From an uncultured Candidatus Saccharibacteria bacterium (lineage in GTDB: Bacteria; Patescibacteriota; Minisyncoccia; Phycocordibacterales; CAZTPW01): DNA of 64,000 nucleotides. Below are positions 1,786 to 61,216 of this stretch, piece after piece (positions within the stretch are counted from its first letter, which is position 1; every line of letters begins with the position of its first letter). A model generated the notes under the pieces. The model worked only from the letters and a program-made list of their open reading frames with translations, was not told the DNA's origin and did no database searches. The stretch covers positions 5,656 through 69,655 of the forward strand of contig CAZTPW010000002.1 in the NCBI GenBank assembly GCA_964615725.1, written 5' to 3'. Position numbers and translations under genes: made by a program.

Positions 1786-3942
1786 TTATTCAAAATGAAT
1801 CTCGTCTTTTTGATGGGCGATATGTGAAGCCAACTTCGGATAGTCTGAGAGGGTAGGGTCTTCATGAATAATGCGTGCAGCTTCGGTCCTTGCGGCTTCT
1901 ACCATTTTAATATTTTTGATGCCTTCCATCGCAAGGTCGGAGAGACCCCATTGTCGACGACCATAGAGTTCGCCTGCGCCACGAAGCATAAGGTCTTGCT
2001 CAGCAAGCTCGAAACCATTTTTTGCTGTGATGAGTGCCTTGAGACGGTCGACAGTCTTCTGACTTTTTGTCTCTGCAAAAAGATAACAGTAAGGTTGATG
2101 CGTTCCTCGAATCACTCGACCGCGAAGCTGGTGAAGTTGTGAGAGGCCAAATCGCTCAGCGCCCTCGATAACGATTACGGTGGCATTCGGTACGTTTACA
2201 CCGACTTCAACCACTGATGTGGCAACGAGAATATCTGTCTTGTGTGCAGAAAAATCAGCCATAATCTCATCTTTTTCTTTTGCCGACATTTTGCTGTGAA
2301 GAATGTCGATTGTGTATTCTTTGAAAATATCACGCTGGAGTCGTTCTGCTTCTTCGGTGACTGATTTTGCATTGAGTGAACCTTCTTTGTCGGGATCGGG
2401 TTCGTAAATGCGAGGGCAAATGATATATGCTTGTCGACCTTCTTTGAGAAGTGCTCGAATGTGTTCGTAGACTTTTTCACGGTTATTAGGCCAGACCATT
2501 TCAGTGATGACAGGTTTTCGTCCGAGGGGCATTTGGTCAAGTAGGGTAATATCAAGATCGCCGTACACCGTCAGTGCGAGCGTTCGCGGAATCGGAGTCG
2601 CCGTCATCGAAAGGAGGTGTGGTGCTCGCCCGTCTTTGCGGGCGAGCTTCTGTCTCTGTGCTGTTCCGAAACGATGTTGCTCATCAATCACTACATACGC
2701 AAGATTTTTAAACTTCACTTCTTTTTGAATGAGCGCATGCGTCCCAATCAAAATCGGAATCTCGCCATTTGCCACCCATTTCAAAAGCTGAGTCCTCGAA
2801 ATATCAGTGAAGCCCTCAGGATTTACCTTTGAAGGAAATTTCTTGCAACCACTCCCAGTAATCAGTCCAATCTGAATCGGCAAATGACGGAAATATTTTA
2901 TAAAAGACTCATAGTGTTGCTTTGCGAGAATCTCAGTCGGCGCCATGTATGCGACTTGGAGTGTCCCAAAATCCTGACCACGCGGTCGAGTGGTGACAAT
3001 AGCGAATGCGGTCGAAGCAGCCACCGCAGTCTTTCCTGAACCGACATCCCCCTCGAGAAGTCGCGACATTGGCGAACTTTTTGAAAAATCAGCGAGGATC
3101 GTCTCAATCGCTCGTGCCTGCGCAGGTGTTTCTTTGAAGGGGAAGCGATCGACAAATTCGCGAATATCTTCGGGTTGTTTCTCAATCGAAAACGCATTCT
3201 GTTCTTCGTAGATCCGACGTTGCATTTGCTTGCGAAGCTGGATCATAAAAATCTCCTCAAAAGCGAAACGTTTCCGTGCAACATCAGCGTCCTGCATTTT
3301 TTGCGGTCCATGAATCCAGACCAGTGCTGTGCGGAGTGATGGTAAGTGATACTGCTCCAAAATCTCCGCGGGGATCGCATCATCTAAAGAATCCAAAAAA
3401 CTCGGCGTCAAAATCTTCTGAATCGCATGATAGATCCAATTCGACGTCACGCCCTTCGACTCCGGATACACAGGATAGAGAATATCTTTCTGACCTTCGC
3501 TTCCAAAGAGGGAATTACCAACACCGATCGGTAACGTCGTCACAACCTCGATCTTCGGATTGCTCATATAAAGCTCACCCTTTCTCTCAGAAATCTTACC
3601 CTCAGCACGCACAAAGCTCTCTTCAGAAATCATCTTCGCGAGATACGGTTGATGAAACCACACCGCCTTGATCGACGAGCTCTGGTCGGTGATCACTGCA
3701 TCGGCCATTGCGATCCTCGTGCGAAAGCCTTTCGATGTTTTGAGTTTGGTGATTTTTCCGAAAATAATTGCAGCATCGCCCTTCTTCAAAGAGGCAATAC
3801 TTTGCACTGAAGCCGTATCGCCATACCGGACAGGGAAATGATAGAGCAAGTCCTCGATCGTCTTGATACCGAGCTTGGTCAAGGCTTTGAGGTGAGCCTC
3901 ATCGAGTCGGCCGATTTCTTTGATAGGTGAATGCAGATTCAT
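1786..3942 (-). CDS. recG: ATP-dependent DNA helicase RecG
   Basis: Walker A GDVGSGKT, DEQH box (VVIDEQHRFG), helicase C-terminal motifs (HQLRGRVIRG) and an N-terminal wedge/helix-hairpin region (KLGIKTIEDLLYHFPVRY). The ORF-track entry 1786..4035 starts at a TTG; the ATG at 3940-3942 (MNLHSPIKEIGRLDE...) gives a typical RecG N-terminus and length (~718 aa). Confidence 0.9.
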   Translation of the reverse strand: MNLHSPIKEIGRLDEAHLKALTKLGIKTIEDLLYHFPVRYGDTASVQSIASLKKGDAAIIFGKITKLKTSKGFRTRIAMADAVITDQSSSIKAVWFHQPYLAKMISEESFVRAEGKISERKGELYMSNPKIEVVTTLPIGVGNSLFGSEGQKDILYPVYPESKGVTSNWIYHAIQKILTPSFLDSLDDAIPAEILEQYHLPSLRTALVWIHGPQKMQDADVARKRFAFEEIFMIQLRKQMQRRIYEEQNAFSIEKQPEDIREFVDRFPFKETPAQARAIETILADFSKSSPMSRLLEGDVGSGKTAVAASTAFAIVTTRPRGQDFGTLQVAYMAPTEILAKQHYESFIKYFRHLPIQIGLITGSGCKKFPSKVNPEGFTDISRTQLLKWVANGEIPILIGTHALIQKEVKFKNLAYVVIDEQHRFGTAQRQKLARKDGRAPHLLSMTATPIPRTLALTVYGDLDITLLDQMPLGRKPVITEMVWPNNREKVYEHIRALLKEGRQAYIICPRIYEPDPDKEGSLNAKSVTEEAERLQRDIFKEYTIDILHSKMSAKEKDEIMADFSAHKTDILVATSVVEVGVNVPNATVIVIEGAERFGLSQLHQLRGRVIRGTHQPYCYLFAETKSQKTVDRLKALITAKNGFELAEQDLMLRGAGELYGRRQWGLSDLAMEGIKNIKMVEAARTEAARIIHEDPTLSDYPKLASHIAHQKDEIHFE

Positions 3943-4025
3943 GTGTGGATATTGTAGCGAAAATACCTTTGAAAAGATATTCAAAAAAGTTGGAATTTGA
4001 TGGTCATATCGATTACAATGCATAT

Positions 4026-6853: not shown

Positions 6854-6899
6854 ACGAACAAAAAATGTCTCACAATTTTGTGAGACATTTTTTGTTCGT
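6854..6899. repeat. perfect 46-nt palindrome (23-bp stem, AATT centre) abutting the tRNA-Ser 3' end
   Basis: acgaacaaaaaatgtctcacaa|ttgtgagacattttttgttcgt is perfectly self-complementary. On the minus strand it begins at the encoded CCA of tRNA-Ser. It is a likely transcript-end hairpin/terminator or a protein-binding palindrome. Confidence 0.6.
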
Positions 6900-21519: not shown

Positions 21520-21690
21520 AAAATGCTGGGCACCTGTTCAGGCCCCAGCACGGGAAAAGTGAAGTTGAAGGGTTACGCTGCCGCCAGTTCCACGAAGGAC
21601 GCAGCACCAGAGGTCCACGAGCGAAGGAGCTCTTTGAGCTTGCGGCGATGACGCCGGCGGGTGGTGGCCGGATCCTCCCGATGTTGCTTG
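21520..21690 (-). ncRNA. ffs: candidate signal-recognition-particle RNA (ffs); strand and ends uncertain
   Basis: The ~390-bp intergenic island 21520-21907 is ~60% GC versus ~46% background and has no credible ORF. It contains an SRP domain-IV-like core: minus strand GGTGCTG-CGTCC-TTCGT-GGAAC...GCAGC, read on the plus strand as TTCC-ACGAA-GGA-C-GCAGCACC. A minus-strand intrinsic terminator (GCTGGGCACCTGTTCAGGCCCCAGC plus ATTTTTTATTT) sits at 21522-21552. Class assignment needs a covariance-model search. Confidence 0.3.
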
Positions 21691-21925
21691 ACCCTCATGA
21701 AAGTGCGTTTGCAAGGTTCGATCAAACCTTGCCCATGATGCGTTGATGTGTTCGGCATGGACTATGATGTTGTATCTGCGGTTGTTGTTTTCCGACACAA
21801 TCTGCTCTACCACGAGCAAACCGTAGTGCAAAGCTTCACTTTTTGATGAATTTTAGAGAGCCAGCACCGGGGTCTAAGTATACTGATATTTTCCAAAATG
21901 GCAAGGGGTGTGCTATGATGACCGC

Positions 21926-27172: not shown

Positions 27173-27247
27173 GCCAATGTAGCTCAGTTGGTAGAGCACG
27201 TCCATGGTAAGGACGAGGTCATCGGTTCAATCCCGATCATTGGCTCC
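27173..27247 (+). tRNA. tRNA-Thr, anticodon GGU
   Basis: Acceptor GCCAATG/CATTGGC. Anticodon stem CGTCC/GGACG with loop ATGGTAA. T-arm ATCGG-TTCAATC-CCGAT. Encoded CCA. A TTGAAA-N17-TATGAT promoter lies at ~27117-27146. Confidence 0.85.
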
Positions 27248-27257
27248 AGTAAATTGT

Positions 27258-27333
27258 GCCAAAGTAGCTCAGTTGGTAGAGCACAGCTTTCGTAAAGCTG
27301 GGGTCGCGAGTTCGATCCTCGCCTTTGGCTCCA
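27258..27333 (+). tRNA. tRNA-Thr, anticodon CGU
   Basis: Acceptor GCCAAAG/CTTTGGC. Anticodon stem CAGCT/AGCTG with loop TTCGTAA. T-arm GCGAG-TTCGATC-CTCGC. Encoded CCA. A hairpin plus T-run terminator lies at ~27360-27390. Confidence 0.85.
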
Positions 27334-27430: not shown

Positions 27431-30400
27431 ATGCAAAAAAATATTTTTGAGAAGATAGTAATGTTCGGCGCACCCCTTACTGTCCTCGCTCTCCTTACTG
27501 TTGTTGTGACTCAGTTTCAGGATGCGCGACTCGTTCGTCGTTCTACCGCTTCGATTGTCGATGCTGGTGGCACCTCACTCGTACTCCATTATCCATTTGA
27601 TAGCTACACTTCTGGAGTAACAACACTTCAGGATAGCTCTGGAAATGGTATCACCGCTTCATTTCTCGGTACTTTACCAACTTCTATCGCAGGCAATGTG
27701 GGTAGTGGTGCACTCTCAATGAAGAGTGGCGGTTTCTTGCGAGCCAATTCATCACTTGGAATCACTAGTTATCCTTTCACAATCTCAGCGTGGGTACGAC
27801 AGCCGTCGAGCGTAAAAGGCCTTACACCAATTGCAGGCTTCTATGACACGACCACTGGTACCGACATGAAGGGTATTAGTATTAACAATTCAGGAAAAGC
27901 AGGAATCTTCTTTTCAAATACTGAGGGATATGAGGGAACATCACCTTGGCTGCGAAATAATGCATGGCATCATATCGTAGGAATTTTCACATCGACAGGT
28001 ATATCACTCTATGTTGACGGGACTTCAGTCGCAAACCTCCCATCCCAATTTACATTTCCAACAACACTTCAGAAATTCACAGTAAGTGGTTTTGATCGAT
28101 ATGCTGCGGACATTGTTGACTATCCATACACAGGCGACATTGATGACGTACGAGTATATAAAACAGCACTTACAGCAGATGACGTGCAGGCACTCTTTAG
28201 CCTCGGTCAGTACACCGGAGGTGGTACTGGTGGTCCTGACACGCAAGCACCAACCATTTCTATCACTTCTCCAACGACTGGCTCATCACCAACTGGCTCC
28301 GTAACACTTACCGCTCAAGCGACAGACAATGAAGGGGTTGCTGGTGTACAGTTTTATATCAATGGCGAAAAGTACGGCCAGGAAATTCTTTCTGCGCCAT
28401 ACTCGGTATCATGGAACACCACAACTGTTTCAAATGGTACCTATACAATTACTGCGGTGGCGAAGGATTATAGTGATAACACCACCACATCAAGCGCCGT
28501 ATCAGTGTCTGTCACCAACCCGGTCATAGCGCCAAAGCCTCATAAAGTCATTAGTTGGAACGCTCCGATTGGAATCCCAGAACCATCATTTGGTATTCGG
28601 GAAGATGTAAGTCACTTCATTTTGCGCAGTGGTGAGACATGTGCAACACAACCACAAAAATGCTTCGACTATGGAAATGGTCAGCAGGCTTACAAGCTCA
28701 ATTCAGTCGGTGAGCCATATACCCACTATGTTGAACCTACCAATCCCAATAGTACAGATTCTGATAACCCATTCGGAAGTCCTGCAAAGCCACGTGTGAC
28801 GCTACCAACACTTTTTACTCCCGGAATGATTGTAGAGCTTCATGGAACCTACAATAAAGCACGAGTACCAGTACACTACTACACATCAGGAGGTGGTACG
28901 AAGGAGCGCCCAGCATTTATCCGTGGGCTTGATACGAATGGTCAGAAAGCAGTCTTTGCAGATTTGAACTTCGAGATTGCCTCATCGTATTTGATTGTTG
29001 AAAATATTGAATTCCGTAATACTGCACCTCGATTCTATCCTTGGGCGCCAGGTCTTTCTATCCATCACAACGCATTACGCTACTGCGACCTTCATACCGG
29101 CACCGTGGCGGCAAGCTATACCCCTGGAATTACTGTCAGCAATATCGTGATATTCGCAAATAACATTCAGACTGACAAGAATGTGTTTGATTATGACGCA
29201 CCTGGAGAAATTTATGAGAATGATATAAACGGTGTCTACATAGGACGGCAATCAGAGGATGTGTGGGTGCTCGACAATACTATCCACGACCTCCCGGGTG
29301 ACTCTGTGGGCGGGGGACATGATGCTGATTATACTGCGAAGCGATACTATATCGGGCGAAATGATCTCTATCGAACGGGCGAAAACGCAATCGATATTAA
29401 GGAAGTTGATACCGTGATTGTGTCTCAGAATAAAATGCACGACTTCAAAGGTGGCTCAGAGGGTTCAGATGGTACTGCAACGGTCGTTCACTACGGTCCT
29501 ACCTATTCACCAAAAAATGTTTGGTTCCTCTTCAACGAAATTTATAATGCTTCTGATACTGGATTCCAAGTCGGCGGCGATCAACTCTTTGACGTTAGAT
29601 TTATTGGTAATATTGTACGCAATATTCACAATTCATCCGGGAATGCATGGGGTTATCGAGCATGGAACTCAAATGACGTATATCTCGTTAACAACCTCTT
29701 CTACGATGTCGACAATGGAATTTACTCAGATACCGGTGATGGCTCAAAACTCACCGTCGAGAACAACATCATTGCCAAGGTAAAAGATGGCGGTTATCAT
29801 GTGTCGCTTGCAGGATCAAGTCATATGAATCTCTCTCAGTTTGCGAATAATATTTTCTATCAGCCGGGTGGCAACGCTCGAATTGCATGGGGAGGCGTAA
29901 ATATTATCAACCTCACACTCTACGGTTCTCTCCTTAATGTCGGTCAATTTATGAGCTCAACAGGAAAGTGTGTGGGATGTCTTGAAGCAGATCCAAAGTT
30001 CAACAATAGCGCTCAAAATGATTTCAGTCTCCGACAGGATTCTCCAGCAATCAACGCTGGTAGCTCAGCGGTCATTGATCGACTTGCTGCTCTCTATCCA
30101 ATCCCAGGTATTTCTATCAAAAAAGATATTTCTGGTGGTACACGACCAGCGTCGGGTGTTTGGGATATTGGCCCTCATGAATACCTCGGCACCATTGATT
30201 CGACTCAGAAAAATCTTACTGTTGTTCTTGGTGGACAGGGGCAAGGTAGTGTTACCGTAACAGCATCGGGTTCAGTCCTTCAAACTGCTGAATCATCTGC
30301 GGCATCGAGCTATACCGTGTCAGGGGTCGTGACGTTGACCGCAGTACCTGAGCCGGGGTCAACGTTTGGTGGATGGCAAGGTGCCTCATGTACTGGTACT

Positions 30401-31402
30401 ACTTGTGTTATCTCACTCGTGTCTGATCTATCGGTGGTCGCACTCTTCAATGCAAATCAAGGTAGTGGACCTGCAATTATTTCACCTAGTGTTACCGTTG
30501 GTGCTGGACGAGCTACGATTTATTGGACTACCGACGTGGCAGCAACTGGCCAGGTGCAGTATGGACTTACCACATCATATGGAAATGTATCTCCACAAAG
30601 CACAGCAAAAACAGTCCACAGTCACACACTCACCGGTCTCAACCGACTCACCACGTATCACTACCGAATTGTCGTAACTTCTGCTGATGGCACAACACAG
30701 TCTGCAGATGCGGTATTTACAACTCCAAATAGTCCACCTCCTCCTGTTGTAGGGGCACCTTTTGTCCCAGGTAATGGCACAACAACACCTCCAGTTGTCA
30801 TTACTCCATCAAGTACACCGGTAGTGTCTCCATTTACCCGAAACCTTCAGCTTGGTGCGCAGGAGCCACAGGTCGCAGTCCTCCAGGATGTGCTCGTTAA
30901 GGAAAAGGTTCTCGATGCAGGTGCCTTTAAAAAGGGAATCTTTGATACCAAGACCGAAAAAGCAGTTCAAGCATTCCAGAAAAAATACGATATTGTGCGT
31001 TCAGGAAAACCACAAACTACAGGATATGGTTCAACCGATGCAAAAACTCGTTCGATCCTCAATGAAATTGCTAGTCAGCAAGCCCAGACCAACGCCATTG
31101 TTCAAAGTATCCCTCGAACATTCACTTTTACACGATCGCTTCAGATTGGCTCGGTTGGTGAGGATGTTCGATATCTCCAAATATTTTTAAATACCCACAA
31201 TTTCCCTGTGGCGAAAAGTGGTGCTGGCTCACGTGGCAGAGAGGGAACTGTCTATGGAACAGCAACAGCTCAGGCCTTGGCGAAGTTCCAAGAATTATAC
31301 AAGGATGAAATTCTAACACCAATGGGTAAAAAGAAAGGAGACGGTGTGTTTGGAAAGACAACACTTGCAAAGGTAAATGCTTTGCGAGCAGCGGGTAAGT
31401 AG
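27431..31402 (+). CDS. 1323-aa multidomain cell-surface protein (LamG-like, Ig-like, parallel beta-helix, FN3, 2x peptidoglycan-binding domains)
   Basis: N-terminal signal/TM (FGAPLTVLALLTVVV). A concanavalin/LamG-like region (ISAWVRQPSS...DDVRVYKTALTADDV). An Ig-like region (TGGPDTQAPTISITSPTTG...YTITAVAKDYSDN). Repetitive N-rich right-handed beta-helix repeats (NNIIAKV, NNLFYDV, etc.). An FN3-like region (TTYHYRIVVTSADGTT). Two C-terminal PG_binding_1-like repeats (FTRNLQLGAQEPQVAVLQDVL...; FTRSLQIGSVGEDVRYLQIFL...). Confidence 0.8.
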   Translation: MQKNIFEKIVMFGAPLTVLALLTVVVTQFQDARLVRRSTASIVDAGGTSLVLHYPFDSYTSGVTTLQDSSGNGITASFLGTLPTSIAGNVGSGALSMKSGGFLRANSSLGITSYPFTISAWVRQPSSVKGLTPIAGFYDTTTGTDMKGISINNSGKAGIFFSNTEGYEGTSPWLRNNAWHHIVGIFTSTGISLYVDGTSVANLPSQFTFPTTLQKFTVSGFDRYAADIVDYPYTGDIDDVRVYKTALTADDVQALFSLGQYTGGGTGGPDTQAPTISITSPTTGSSPTGSVTLTAQATDNEGVAGVQFYINGEKYGQEILSAPYSVSWNTTTVSNGTYTITAVAKDYSDNTTTSSAVSVSVTNPVIAPKPHKVISWNAPIGIPEPSFGIREDVSHFILRSGETCATQPQKCFDYGNGQQAYKLNSVGEPYTHYVEPTNPNSTDSDNPFGSPAKPRVTLPTLFTPGMIVELHGTYNKARVPVHYYTSGGGTKERPAFIRGLDTNGQKAVFADLNFEIASSYLIVENIEFRNTAPRFYPWAPGLSIHHNALRYCDLHTGTVAASYTPGITVSNIVIFANNIQTDKNVFDYDAPGEIYENDINGVYIGRQSEDVWVLDNTIHDLPGDSVGGGHDADYTAKRYYIGRNDLYRTGENAIDIKEVDTVIVSQNKMHDFKGGSEGSDGTATVVHYGPTYSPKNVWFLFNEIYNASDTGFQVGGDQLFDVRFIGNIVRNIHNSSGNAWGYRAWNSNDVYLVNNLFYDVDNGIYSDTGDGSKLTVENNIIAKVKDGGYHVSLAGSSHMNLSQFANNIFYQPGGNARIAWGGVNIINLTLYGSLLNVGQFMSSTGKCVGCLEADPKFNNSAQNDFSLRQDSPAINAGSSAVIDRLAALYPIPGISIKKDISGGTRPASGVWDIGPHEYLGTIDSTQKNLTVVLGGQGQGSVTVTASGSVLQTAESSAASSYTVSGVVTLTAVPEPGSTFGGWQGASCTGTTCVISLVSDLSVVALFNANQGSGPAIISPSVTVGAGRATIYWTTDVAATGQVQYGLTTSYGNVSPQSTAKTVHSHTLTGLNRLTTYHYRIVVTSADGTTQSADAVFTTPNSPPPPVVGAPFVPGNGTTTPPVVITPSSTPVVSPFTRNLQLGAQEPQVAVLQDVLVKEKVLDAGAFKKGIFDTKTEKAVQAFQKKYDIVRSGKPQTTGYGSTDAKTRSILNEIASQQAQTNAIVQSIPRTFTFTRSLQIGSVGEDVRYLQIFLNTHNFPVAKSGAGSRGREGTVYGTATAQALAKFQELYKDEILTPMGKKKGDGVFGKTTLAKVNALRAAGK

Positions 31403-31430
31403 GGGGTTGGTGAAAGTAAATTATTGACAA

Positions 31431-31477
31431 AAAGCTGAATTGGGGTATTGTTATACCGATTCAGCTTTTTTTGATTT
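31431..31477 (+). terminator. rho-independent terminator after the large surface-protein gene
   Basis: aaagctgaat...attcagcttt stem enclosing a GGGTAT/ATACC sub-hairpin, followed by a T7 run. Confidence 0.75.
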
Positions 31478-31883
31478 CGCGCAAGGAGGTGTTCCTCCAC
31501 ATGCCGCATAGGGTTGCGCCTTTGCGAAGACGGGAGTTGTTAACCCGTATCGGTTACCTCCTTGCGCTTCTTCCTTTATGCCACCCCTTGGCGGTGTCCA
31601 GATACATTCCTCGCCACCAACCCAACCTCCCATGGTTGAGTTCCGCGACGAACGGCCCTGCTCACGTCAAGAACAGGACTATCTGTGACACCCCTTGGGG
31701 TTGGCAGTTCATAAGGGAAAATTCTCCGCCCTTTGGTGGGGACAATAGACCGTGCTTGGAAACGTAGCCCCGATCAATTCGGCGTACAGCTGCTGAGGCA
31801 ACCTCGGCACCCAAGGACTCATTGTTCTCACTAGGGCGGTTTTTGTTTTATGCTATTTTGATATAGTATTTTCACATACATCC

Positions 31884-32777
31884 ATGGAGACAAATCCTCG
31901 CCATACCAAAATCAACGAACGAATCGCCGAAATCGAAGCACTTATGAATAGTGCTGATTTTTGGCAGAATCCACACAAGGCACAAGCAATGATAAAGGAA
32001 ATGCAGGACCTCAAAACCGAGCTTGAAGGGGGAGGTAAGTATGATAAAGGCGATGCGATCGTTACGATTTTTTCAGGGGCTGGTGGCGACGATGCCGAAG
32101 ATTTTTCAAGTATGCTTTTCCGTATGTACCGCAAGTATTCCGAAAAACGAGGCTGGTCACTTTCACTCATTCATGAAAACCAAAATGATCACGGCGGTTT
32201 TCGCAATGTCACTTTTGAAATTTCAGGAAAATCAGTATATGGCACCCTCAAAAACGAATCAGGCGTCCATCGCTTGGTCCGAATCTCCCCATTCAATGCA
32301 AAGCAGCTTCGGCACACATCGTTTTCAATGGTAGAAGTGATTCCAAAGTTTGAAAAAACAGACTCTGCTATCGAAATTCCCGAGAAAGACCTCGAAGTGA
32401 CTATGTCACGAGCAGGAGGTCCTGGCGGACAAAACGTCAACAAACGCGAAACTGCGGTACGAATTGTCCATCTTCCCACAAAACTTTCCGTGCATGTCAC
32501 CTCAGAGCGCTCACAGGCTCAAAACAAAGAAAAAGCCCTCGATATTCTCAAAGCAAAACTCTATAAAATGCAGGAGGAAGAGCGTATCGCAAAAGAAAAG
32601 GGAATGTATATTTCAAAAACGACTAGCATAGAATGGGGCAATCAAATTCGCTCGTATGTTCAGCACCCCTACAAGATGGTCAAAGACCACCGCACCGATG
32701 TAGAAACCTCAGATGTGGAGGCGGTCCTCGAGGGCGATATCGACCTCTTTCTCGACGCTGAAAAGAATTTGGGCTAA
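31884..32777 (+). CDS. prfB: peptide chain release factor 2 (no programmed +1 frameshift, short N-terminus)
   Basis: SPF tripeptide (RISPFNAKQ) and GGQ motif (RAGGPGGQNVNK). 297 aa continuous ORF. No CUU-UGA-C frameshift site upstream. Confidence 0.85.
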   Translation: METNPRHTKINERIAEIEALMNSADFWQNPHKAQAMIKEMQDLKTELEGGGKYDKGDAIVTIFSGAGGDDAEDFSSMLFRMYRKYSEKRGWSLSLIHENQNDHGGFRNVTFEISGKSVYGTLKNESGVHRLVRISPFNAKQLRHTSFSMVEVIPKFEKTDSAIEIPEKDLEVTMSRAGGPGGQNVNKRETAVRIVHLPTKLSVHVTSERSQAQNKEKALDILKAKLYKMQEEERIAKEKGMYISKTTSIEWGNQIRSYVQHPYKMVKDHRTDVETSDVEAVLEGDIDLFLDAEKNLG

Positions 32778-46709: not shown

Positions 46710-46732
46710 GGAATCGCCAACCCTGGAAGACA

Positions 46733-46764
46733 AAAACGCCCATAAGAGGGCGTTTTTGTTTTGT
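46733..46764 (+). terminator. rho-independent terminator
   Basis: aaaacgccc-ataagag-ggcgtttt followed by tgttttg. Confidence 0.8.
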
Positions 46765-55723: not shown

Positions 55724-55843
55724 GCAGAATATAGTACAAAGGCAAGTTTTTCGAGCACGGATATTTTCTTGGTAGAAAATTCCTCGTGCTCGGCTCGACA
55801 GCCTCGCAAGTCTCTCAAAACTTGCCTTTGTACTATATTCTGC
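55724..55843. repeat. 120-bp nested perfect palindrome (MITE-like) in the secG/lemA divergent intergenic region
   Basis: The outer 27-bp arms are perfect inverted repeats: gcagaatatagtacaaaggcaagtttt (55724-55750) and aaaacttgcctttgtactatattctgc (55817-55843). Inside them are inner inverted repeats cgagcacg/cgtgctcg (55752-55759/55785-55792) and attttc/gaaaat (55762-55767/55775-55780). Confidence 0.7.
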
Positions 55844-60878: not shown

Positions 60879-60884
60879 CATATG

Positions 60885-61216
60885 CTTTGTATCTATAAGC
60901 CGAATTTTGTACTCGCAAAAGCGATGATCATTTATCTGGGCCAGCCGTTACCGTCTGGCTCAAGCGGCACTCTTCATCACCGAAGCGATGAAGCACGACC
61001 TTGCACGTGGGTAAGAATTTAGCCGTTGCACCCTCCGTATTGCTACGAAGACTCGTCTCTGTTCGCATCTCTTGGATTGCTCCAGACGGGCGTTACCCGC
61101 TACCTTGCTGATTCTGTGTTGCCACAGAGTTCACGTGTTCGGACTTTCCTCACGAAAGATAGGGAACTCGCTTGGGGCAAGCTATGTCTCACGCGCGATC
61201 ATCCAATACAAAGACC
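60885..61216 (-). ncRNA. rnpB: RNase P RNA (bacterial type A)
   Basis: The minus-strand read contains the P4 5' strand GAGGAAAGTCCGAAC. It also has CAGCAAGGTAGCGGGTAACGCCCGTCTGGAGCAATCC (compare the E. coli M1 segment GGTAACGCCTGGG). The P4 3' strand reads GGCCCAGATAAATGATCATCGC...ACAAAATTCGGCTTA (compare GGCCTAGATGAATGA...ACAGAACCCGGCTTA). P1 pairing joins GGGTCTTTGTAT (5') with ATACAAAG (3'). Length ~330 nt. Confidence 0.9.

Follow-up and report, generated by a model that had tools for sequence, protein, structure and literature searches.

What occupies the roughly 370 bases between the terminator of a large surface-protein gene and prfB, the gene of release factor 2 (RF2), in the 64,000-nt stretch of contig CAZTPW010000002.1 analysed here (the window)? 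The original prediction, made from the letters of this DNA, had described a GC-rich structured region with no credible open reading frame (ORF) and had suggested a 6S-like RNA, a novel structured non-coding RNA (ncRNA) or an unusually long prfB leader. Folding, family searches and comparison with related prfB loci lead us to favour, tentatively, a lineage-specific, stand-alone structured ncRNA gene on the plus strand with a transcript of ~370-390 nt, a possible though by no means assured account of this element (31478-31849). The novel structured ncRNA remains the best of the earlier suggestions, given that no Rfam family and no transfer-messenger RNA (tmRNA) was assigned and that the predicted fold is exceptional, and the element is best described as an unclassified orphan and candidate structured ncRNA, not as a demonstrably new class.

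Composition and predicted fold

The element stands out by composition: 31478-31839 has a GC content of 56.6%, the highest among all 362-nt stretches of the 64 kb, as against 45.5% for the whole window, and the enrichment first described for 31478-31860 holds as well (54.6%). Its predicted minimum free energy (MFE) on the plus strand is -162.9 kcal/mol, compared with -121.2 +/- 5.9 kcal/mol for dinucleotide shuffles (z = -7.06), a value equalled by 0 of 100 shuffles; on the minus strand the MFE is -166.9 kcal/mol (z = -7.23). As controls from the same window, the GC-rich ligA-gatC spacer (21520-21907, 388 nt), in which neither a credible ORF nor an Rfam match was found, is not significantly structured (z = -0.8 and -1.75), and the RNase P RNA folds at z = -2.8. 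Of the 17 window spacers folded, 4 gave a z below -5.

On the plus strand the element is predicted to form three autonomous, very stable hairpin domains at 31479-31567, 31571-31719 and 31726-31839 (89, 150 and 115 nt), with pairing probabilities (P) above 0.9 in most helices and with the 5' and 3' ends unpaired with one another. Domain 1 (31479-31567) is closed by a 13-bp helix, GCGCAAGGAGGUG / UACCUCCUUGCGC (P = 0.99), which contains the long-range complementary arms reported earlier; the arms exist and are 100% complementary over 12 nt (31479-31490 / 31556-31567), but each had been placed 2 nt off, since GCGCAAGGAGG begins at 31479 and not at 31481, and CCTCCTTGCGC at 31557 and not at 31555. 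Two small hairpins (31505-31526 and 31530-31548) fill the interior of the domain, and the ACGGG and CCCGT motifs named in the original prediction are present at 31530 and 31544, as are its palindromes CCCCTTGGGG at 31691 and ACAGGACTATCTGT at 31673. The 5' arm of domain 1 holds a perfect Shine-Dalgarno-like AAGGAGGUG, and folding of successive prefixes indicates that an alternative local hairpin, GGAGG (31486-31490)-UGUU-CCUCC (31495-31499), forms there first; a second early local hairpin, CCGCCC-UUUG-GUGGGG, behaves alike, both giving way later to long-range helices.

Domain 2 (31571-31719, z = -6.3 on the plus strand) is a 150-nt rod of ~31 stacked pairs with helix P values of 0.82-1.0, carrying a CACCCCTTGG motif in both arms and ending in a three-way junction with apical hairpins at 31607-31652 and 31657-31677. 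Domain 3 (31726-31849 with its tail) pairs CCGCCCU with AGGGCGG and, over 12 bp, GGUGGGGACAAU with AUUGUUCUCACU (P 0.95-0.99); two small hairpins sit on top of the hairpin proper (31726-31839) and the U-tract UUUUUGUUUU (31840-31849) follows directly on its 3' side, in agreement with the GGGCGG (31834-31839) and T-run (TTTTTGTTTT, 31840-31849) noted earlier. In the folding model, the GC-rich base helix followed by the U-tract is designed like an intrinsic terminator. Some internal likeness can also be seen, namely between the tail GCGCTTCTTCCTTTATGC (31564) and GCGGTTTTTGTTTTATGC (31836), which agree at 78%, and between the hairpins GGGTATTGTTATACCG and GGGAGTTGTTAACCCG (75%), while the T-rich terminator tails TTTTTGATTT and TTTTTGTTTT lie at opposite borders of the element.

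Strand and transcription signals

The plus strand is moderately favoured as the transcribed strand. In domain 3 the two strands differ by 14.5 kcal/mol in favour of the plus strand (-53.5 vs -39.0 kcal/mol), the main helix includes three G-U pairs found on the plus strand only, and the minus-strand fold has z = -0.8; the 3' terminator design is likewise present on the plus strand only, and the neighbouring genes are all on that strand. A promoter-like site, TTGACA and TATTGT separated by a 16-nt spacer (31424-31451, plus strand), matches the consensus at 10 of 12 positions inside the upstream terminator hairpin and, judged by that match alone, would place a transcription start near 31458. The consensus scan found no promoter-like site on the minus strand in or beside the element.

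The domain 3 terminator ends 35 nt before the prfB ATG (31884). Since an extended -10-like box, TGaTATAGT (31859-31867, plus strand), lies between the U-tract and this ATG and 17 nt before the latter, it is probably the promoter of prfB itself, and it was passed over by the consensus scan because it has no -35. A canonical Shine-Dalgarno sequence precedes none of the 32 gene starts of the window that were inspected (e.g. 27431, 41228, 50515 and 13703), and several of them have a TATAAT-like box at most ~25 nt from the ATG, so that leaderless or short-leader mRNAs seem to be common in this genome.

If the element is a gene of this kind, transcription would start at ~31458 or enter by read-through of the upstream terminator, and the nascent RNA would pass through the metastable GGAGG/CCUCC and then CCGCCC/GGUGGGG pairings before exchanging them for the long-range helices. 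Synthesis would end at ~31845-31849, and a separate short-leader mRNA for prfB would arise from the extended -10 promoter of that gene. The resulting RNA may be mostly double-helical, resistant to nucleases and active in trans, perhaps by binding a protein or serving as a decoy, and could, as a side effect, insulate prfB from upstream transcription.

Comparison with known RNA families

The scan against all of Rfam proposed together with the original prediction was run with Rfam 15, covering the whole window at the gathering threshold and both strands of 31300-32000 at E <= 10, and assigned the element to no family: it yielded no match at the gathering threshold and no credible one at E <= 10, where HrrF, miRNA precursors and DUF3800-XI appeared as noise, far below threshold and mostly over the upstream terminator. 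As the original prediction had stated, RNase P RNA, tmRNA and signal recognition particle (SRP) RNA find no counterpart here. Neither the RNase P nor the SRP family model matches the element, the window's RNase P RNA lying at 60880-61214 on the minus strand, elsewhere as had been stated, and tmRNA was dismissed on the negative Rfam and ARAGORN results, the latter covering the whole window, and on the failure of the element's ends to pair together.

The suggested likeness to 6S RNA did not hold up. Like 6S RNA, the element is GC-rich, stable, largely double-stranded and apparently an independent gene, with a long rod in domain 2; unlike it, the element has no match to RF00013 even at E <= 10, is about twice as long and is built of three domains over ~370 nt, whereas 6S RNA is a single ~190-nt rod in which a central bubble separates the closing stem from the terminal stem. 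The raiA motif RNA is a large structured ncRNA of ~200 nt with helices P1-P6, two pseudoknots and ~51 conserved nucleotides, which occurs in Bacillota and Actinomycetota, is sometimes located near prfB, is not cis-regulatory and has no established function (PMC10861870). It resembles the element as a stand-alone structured ncRNA candidate beside a translation-termination gene, but this loose proximity to prfB is all that is shared: the element is negative for this family at E <= 10, consists of three hairpin domains and belongs to a host of the candidate phyla radiation (CPR), and the raiA motif was set aside. Apart from a remark on the gene neighbourhood of raiA, a literature search found no structured RNAs described in Patescibacteria or upstream of prfB.

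Retron msr-msd, IscB/TnpB omega RNA, IS110 bridge RNA and the template of a diversity-generating retroelement (DGR) were rejected for want of an adjacent partner-enzyme gene and of an Rfam match. No reverse transcriptase, IscB/TnpB or recombinase domain was found with Pfam in the nine neighbouring ORFs scanned, three of which had no Pfam match of any kind, and the element shows no DGR-template-like similarity to the upstream gene. A repeat or mobile element was likewise discarded, the sequence being single-copy in the 64-kb window and devoid of terminal inverted repeats; a target duplication is unconvincing, as the only flanking direct repeat consists of the T-rich terminator tails TTTTTGATTT/TTTTTGTTTT. 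With the ERIC/IRU, BIME/REP and Correia-type repeats the element shares consecutive imperfect palindromes of 90-150 nt beside terminators and extreme folding z values; those repeats, however, are multi-copy, whereas the element occurs once in 64 kb, has no matches elsewhere and lacks terminal inverted repeats.

The closest parallel in general design may be drawn with lineage-specific small RNA (sRNA) genes, which are also intergenic and non-coding, with a promoter-like site upstream, a 3' hairpin plus U-tract and narrow conservation; moreover, the same spacer of related genomes carries other units of like general design. The element differs from them in being longer (~370-390 nt), far more helical (z = -7) and without an evident seed or target, its complementarity to the remaining window being at chance level.

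Search for homologues

For comparison, 80 prfB loci from GTDB species representatives (L001-L080) were collected as the best RF2 matches (68-79% RF2 identity), their hosts being Taylorbacteria, Nomurabacteria, Paceibacterota and similar metagenome-assembled genomes (MAGs) of the CPR. In nhmmer searches with the element, none of these loci gave a match, by default or with --max. A single-sequence covariance model of domain 2 matched nothing but itself among the related loci with default filters, and with filters off reached a best E = 0.3 over the 11 most promising loci. The prfB-upstream units of the relatives share no k-mers with the element above noise. Beyond these loci, blastn of the element against phage and plasmid collections found nothing, nor did a search of viral contigs for four exact strings of 21-26 nt from the element. 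The degenerate pattern AAGGAGGN4CCTCC-N41-71-ACCTCCTTGC had five matches in metagenomes, all in unrelated DNA (four visibly GC-rich) and without further similarity to the element, and these are regarded as chance matches.

Absence from close relatives had been named beforehand as a finding that would speak against a functional RNA. The element is indeed absent from every related prfB locus retrieved, but with a best RF2 identity of only ~79% these are not close relatives. Among 5.8 billion proteins, the nearest RF2 other than the window's own is ~79% identical, and the one other contig with the same RF2, a Logan contig from SRR11567528, the run that yielded the genome assembly, is 100% identical to the window. 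A link with the surface-protein family was considered and rejected: a full-length homologue of that protein was found once (P0130, 34% identity), and there the next gene follows 52 nt downstream; at one related locus (L070) a large upstream ORF with a similar C-terminus lies 19 nt from prfB.

Coding potential

The earlier statement that there is no credible ORF needs some qualification, as an 88-codon ORF (MPHRVAPLRRRELLTRIGYLLALLPL..., 31501-31767, plus strand) does exist from the ATG at 31501, but it tests as almost certainly non-coding. A perfect Shine-Dalgarno sequence, AAGGAGGTG, lies 10 nt before this ATG, and the product would start with RRRELL and a hydrophobic stretch. Its codon score of -0.36 bits/codon falls inside the off-frame range, compared with +0.33 +/- 0.12 (minimum -0.05) for the genes of the window. 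None of six ORFs taken from the six frames of the element, on both strands, has a Pfam or NCBIfam match. Searched against 1.84 billion representative proteins, the 88-aa product has a single match, at 27-29% identity to a repeat of a 6910-aa protein, which we judge to be a chance match with an E-value inflated by five repeats. On the sequence evidence, the ORF is almost certainly not a gene. Coding DNA or a pseudogene was therefore rejected as an explanation of the element, on the lack of a family match, the non-coding codon usage and the chance-level protein match.

Weighing the explanations

Several observations weigh against the candidate plus-strand ncRNA gene. A homologue was found nowhere searched, which leaves the fold without covariation support and the element without evidence of selection. 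Promoter-like sites occur at about the rate of chance (2 found vs 1.3 expected in the 1.3-kb region), GNRA and UNCG tetraloops are absent from the hairpin loops as read from the predicted fold, and at L070 a large ORF whose product resembles the window's surface protein at its C-terminus stands just 19 nt upstream of prfB. The strand signal is mixed, since domain 2 folds 13.7 kcal/mol better on the minus strand (-77.7 vs -64.0 kcal/mol), where five G-U pairs are formed that become C-A mismatches on the plus strand. A z of -7 lies far past the value of RNase P RNA (-2.8), a globular ncRNA, and resembles that of long inverted repeats. The last two points would suit the main rival, an unlikely one in our estimate, according to which the element is a non-functional relic: a GC-rich, part-palindromic patch in a recombination-prone spacer (foreign DNA, a decayed low-copy repeat or terminators left over from lost genes), whose fold is a by-product of nested inverted repeats. 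DNA-level palindromes are expected to give just such a mixture of G-U and A-C signals, and the uniqueness of the element to this genome in every search, a foreign-like GC content 11 points over that of the genome, the internal likenesses (78% and 75%) and border T-tails suggestive of local duplication, and the variable gene order upstream of prfB among relatives fit as well. However, the single occurrence in 64 kb and the lack of terminal inverted repeats and of a convincing target duplication speak against a relic of this sort, and no donor emerged from the phage, plasmid, viral and metagenome searches (the viral and metagenome ones made with a few strings only). Moreover, compact CPR genomes seldom retain 370 nt of junk, and the helices have RNA-like imperfections (bulges and G-U pairs) and lead into a well-formed terminator on the strand that carries the neighbouring genes.

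The same terminator could instead serve prfB in cis, stopping most transcripts so that read-through sets the level of RF2, an attenuator that could replace the missing autoregulation by +1 frameshifting. Its position directly upstream on the same strand, 35 nt before the ATG of an uninterrupted 297-aa RF2 ORF, is consistent with this, as are four relatives (L011, L018, L043 and L061) whose unit terminators lie ~0-25 nt from the estimated prfB start and leave no room for a promoter, and others in which a tRNA-Thr gene 1-5 nt before prfB implies that prfB is often co-transcribed with upstream RNA genes. Within the element, the only candidate competitor, 31611-31620 (10 nt), is 90% complementary to the 5' arm of the terminator (31733-31742); nevertheless, when the 3' terminator arm was blocked in the folding, the 5' arm folded locally and domains 1 and 2 were unchanged, so that no antiterminator appeared. 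The terminator-like end of the element itself, the extended -10-like box between it and the ATG and the short or absent leaders of this genome's genes also speak against a prfB leader, as do the lack of an Rfam cis-regulatory match and of sequence or structure conservation upstream of orthologous prfB genes (nhmmer on the 80 loci and the domain 2 covariance model), and the long leader of the original prediction is accordingly disfavoured and appears improbable. About as small a chance attaches to a functional RNA from the minus strand that would cover at least domains 1 and 2 and end at the upstream hairpin (31470-31429), where a 5' A-run would permit termination on both strands. The slightly lower MFE of the whole region on that strand (-166.9 vs -162.9 kcal/mol), the more stable domain 2 (-77.7 vs -64.0 kcal/mol) with its five extra G-U pairs, and the z of domain 1 (-5.6 vs -3.5 on the plus strand) suggest it, but the missing minus-strand promoter-like site, the much weaker domain 3 (z = -0.8) and the plus orientation of all neighbouring genes and of the clear U-tract terminator do not. 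Highly improbable, finally, is a messenger encoding a small peptide of the type I toxin kind, secreted or in the membrane, in which first a local and later a distal anti-Shine-Dalgarno helix would lock the Shine-Dalgarno sequence, so that translation would need processing or unfolding of the RNA. Toxin mRNAs of the hok and AapA1 type are highly structured, ~400 nt long and typically sequester the Shine-Dalgarno sequence in one helix after another, and in its predicted fold the element resembles hok/Sok and AapA1/IsoA1 in these respects, as it does in the hydrophobic N-terminus of its ORF: the perfect AAGGAGGTG ahead of ATG 31501 would pair early with CCUCC (31495-31499) and then with ACCUCCUUGCGC (31556-31567; 13 bp, P = 0.99), and the RRRELL start plus hydrophobic stretch would fit a small toxin. 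It differs from those systems in having no antisense promoter that could be found, an ORF with codon usage in the non-coding range and a host whose genes are without Shine-Dalgarno sequences (0 of 32 inspected starts); furthermore, 88 aa is long for a type I toxin, no family matches, the sole protein match is a repeat-inflated chance one, and GGAGG/CCUCC stems are frequent in the terminators of relatives too.

The region upstream of prfB in related genomes

In the related loci the gene order upstream of prfB is highly variable. The usual arrangement is tRNA-Thr(ggt) or tRNA-Thr(cgt) followed by prfB, with only 1-5 nt between them in L009, L023, L038 and L067, a spacing that points to co-transcription. 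A gap of at least 150 nt precedes prfB in 30 of 71 related loci, and 15 of the 29 gaps that were folded (150-560 nt) have z <= -4. These gaps contain units made up of a closing stem, internal hairpins, a terminator and a promoter-like sequence, the last recognised by eye and not by a scan, and the terminators commonly include GGAGG/CCUCC stems; in L011, L018, L043 and L061 the unit terminator lies ~0-25 nt from the estimated prfB start. None of the units scanned has an Rfam match, and they fall into small, mutually unrelated families (L004/L010/L025; the L011 tandem pair; L042/L059; L006/L017).

The spot upstream of prfB would thus seem to be held recurrently by lineage-specific structured units, which is compatible with a fast turnover of small-RNA genes or with modulated transcription into prfB. 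Recurrent folded units prove neither, because strong terminators make many spacers fold well (4 of 17 window spacers with z < -5). A further possibility, to which we give very little credence, is that a class of fast-evolving, hyper-stable RNAs occupies the prfB-upstream slot of Paceibacteria and sets RF2 through terminator read-through or RF2-responsive folding, or else that the element is a large CPR-specific ncRNA acting in trans on translation termination.

To our knowledge, very few ncRNAs beyond the universal ones have been described for the CPR/Patescibacteria, whose genomes are compact and poorly understood. If the stand-alone ncRNA gene favoured here is real, an RNA of 370 nt and such exceptional stability, encoded beside an essential translation factor, would offer metatranscriptomics a concrete target, and the recurrent, unrelated, terminator-ended units of the relatives hint at a birth hotspot of small RNAs or at an unrecognised tuning of RF2 without frameshifting. 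As it stands, the importance of the element is limited by its being a single orphan, with a strong signal in the sequence alone and no conservation found.

Several units of the related loci deserve a description of their own. A family of ~180-210 nt (L004:2087-2267, L010:23-157 and L025:3742-3950) is terminator-ended and shares AGCCYGTTRCGGGTTCAA, a motif that does not occur in the window; it has no Rfam match, and its 3' ACCACCC pairs with the 5' end. L025 holds a second, unrelated unit at 3485-3703. In L011, two structured units in tandem (3522-3738 and 3771-3963) are paralogous (nhmmer E = 4e-5) and share the same terminator, GGACCCCCTCCGGTCC plus T-run, the second copy of which is separated from the estimated start of prfB by ~25 nt. 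A conserved GC-rich unit of ~190 nt follows tRNA-Thr directly in two Yonathbacteria MAGs (L059:3715-3973 and L042:3765-3953), with weaker dispersed copies at L042:688-771, L073:400-499 and L050:396-550; the copies scanned, which exclude that of L050, are Rfam-negative, and the unit is possibly an intron-like or mobile RNA element. L006 (~1790-1890) and L017 (~3795-3895) have in common, by eye, a structured ~90-nt motif upstream of prfB, GGTGCCACGGGTG...GCATCCGTGGCA, which is preceded by a promoter-like TATACT box, has its own terminator and does not match Rfam. Just upstream of prfB in L039, L044 and L066 a conserved hairpin, GGCACGGTACCTGGCGGACGTGCC, is followed by ATTTATGC..GGGTTTT, which could be a small cis element or an sRNA. 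Two loci carry intron-like sequences: in L016 (3700-3960) the halves of a tRNA gene are split by a ~230-nt insertion in the anticodon region, and L042 has two Rfam group I intron matches (336-540 and 1752-1975).

Genomic context and terminators of the window

The window belongs to the genome of an uncultured Paceibacteria/Parcubacteria (CPR) bacterium. The gene order around the element is tRNA-Thr(ggt) and tRNA-Thr(cgt), surface protein, element, RF2 (prfB), FtsE and FtsX. The two tRNA genes (27173-27333) were located by ARAGORN. They are followed by the gene of the 1323-aa surface protein (27431-31402, plus strand; stop TAG at 31400-31402), with Laminin_G_3, Big_7, beta-helix and PG_binding_1 domains. 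RF2 is encoded by a single uninterrupted ORF of 297 aa (31884-32777, plus strand); it is a short form without the segment that bears the classical +1 frameshift site, and all relatives have ~290-300 aa.

The terminator of the surface-protein gene (31429-31477, plus strand), originally placed at 31431-31477, was confirmed as a stem of AAAAAGCTGAATTGG / CCGATTCAGCTTTTT with a 12-nt loop and a T-run behind it, the inverted-repeat search giving arms of 15 nt at 31429-31443 and 31456-31470 that are 93% complementary. Owing to an A-run on its 5' side, this hairpin could stop minus-strand transcripts too. The terminators of the window are long perfect palindromes flanked by an A-run and a T-run, for instance at 6854-6899 and 46727-46762, one example having 22-nt arms and a 2-nt loop. 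By their sequence such palindromes look able to terminate transcription on both strands, and they drive the very negative folding z of several window spacers. A further inverted repeat at 55724-55843, of 32 nt with 94% complementarity and a 56-nt spacer between the arms, lies inside a 429-nt spacer that folds at z = -6.4.

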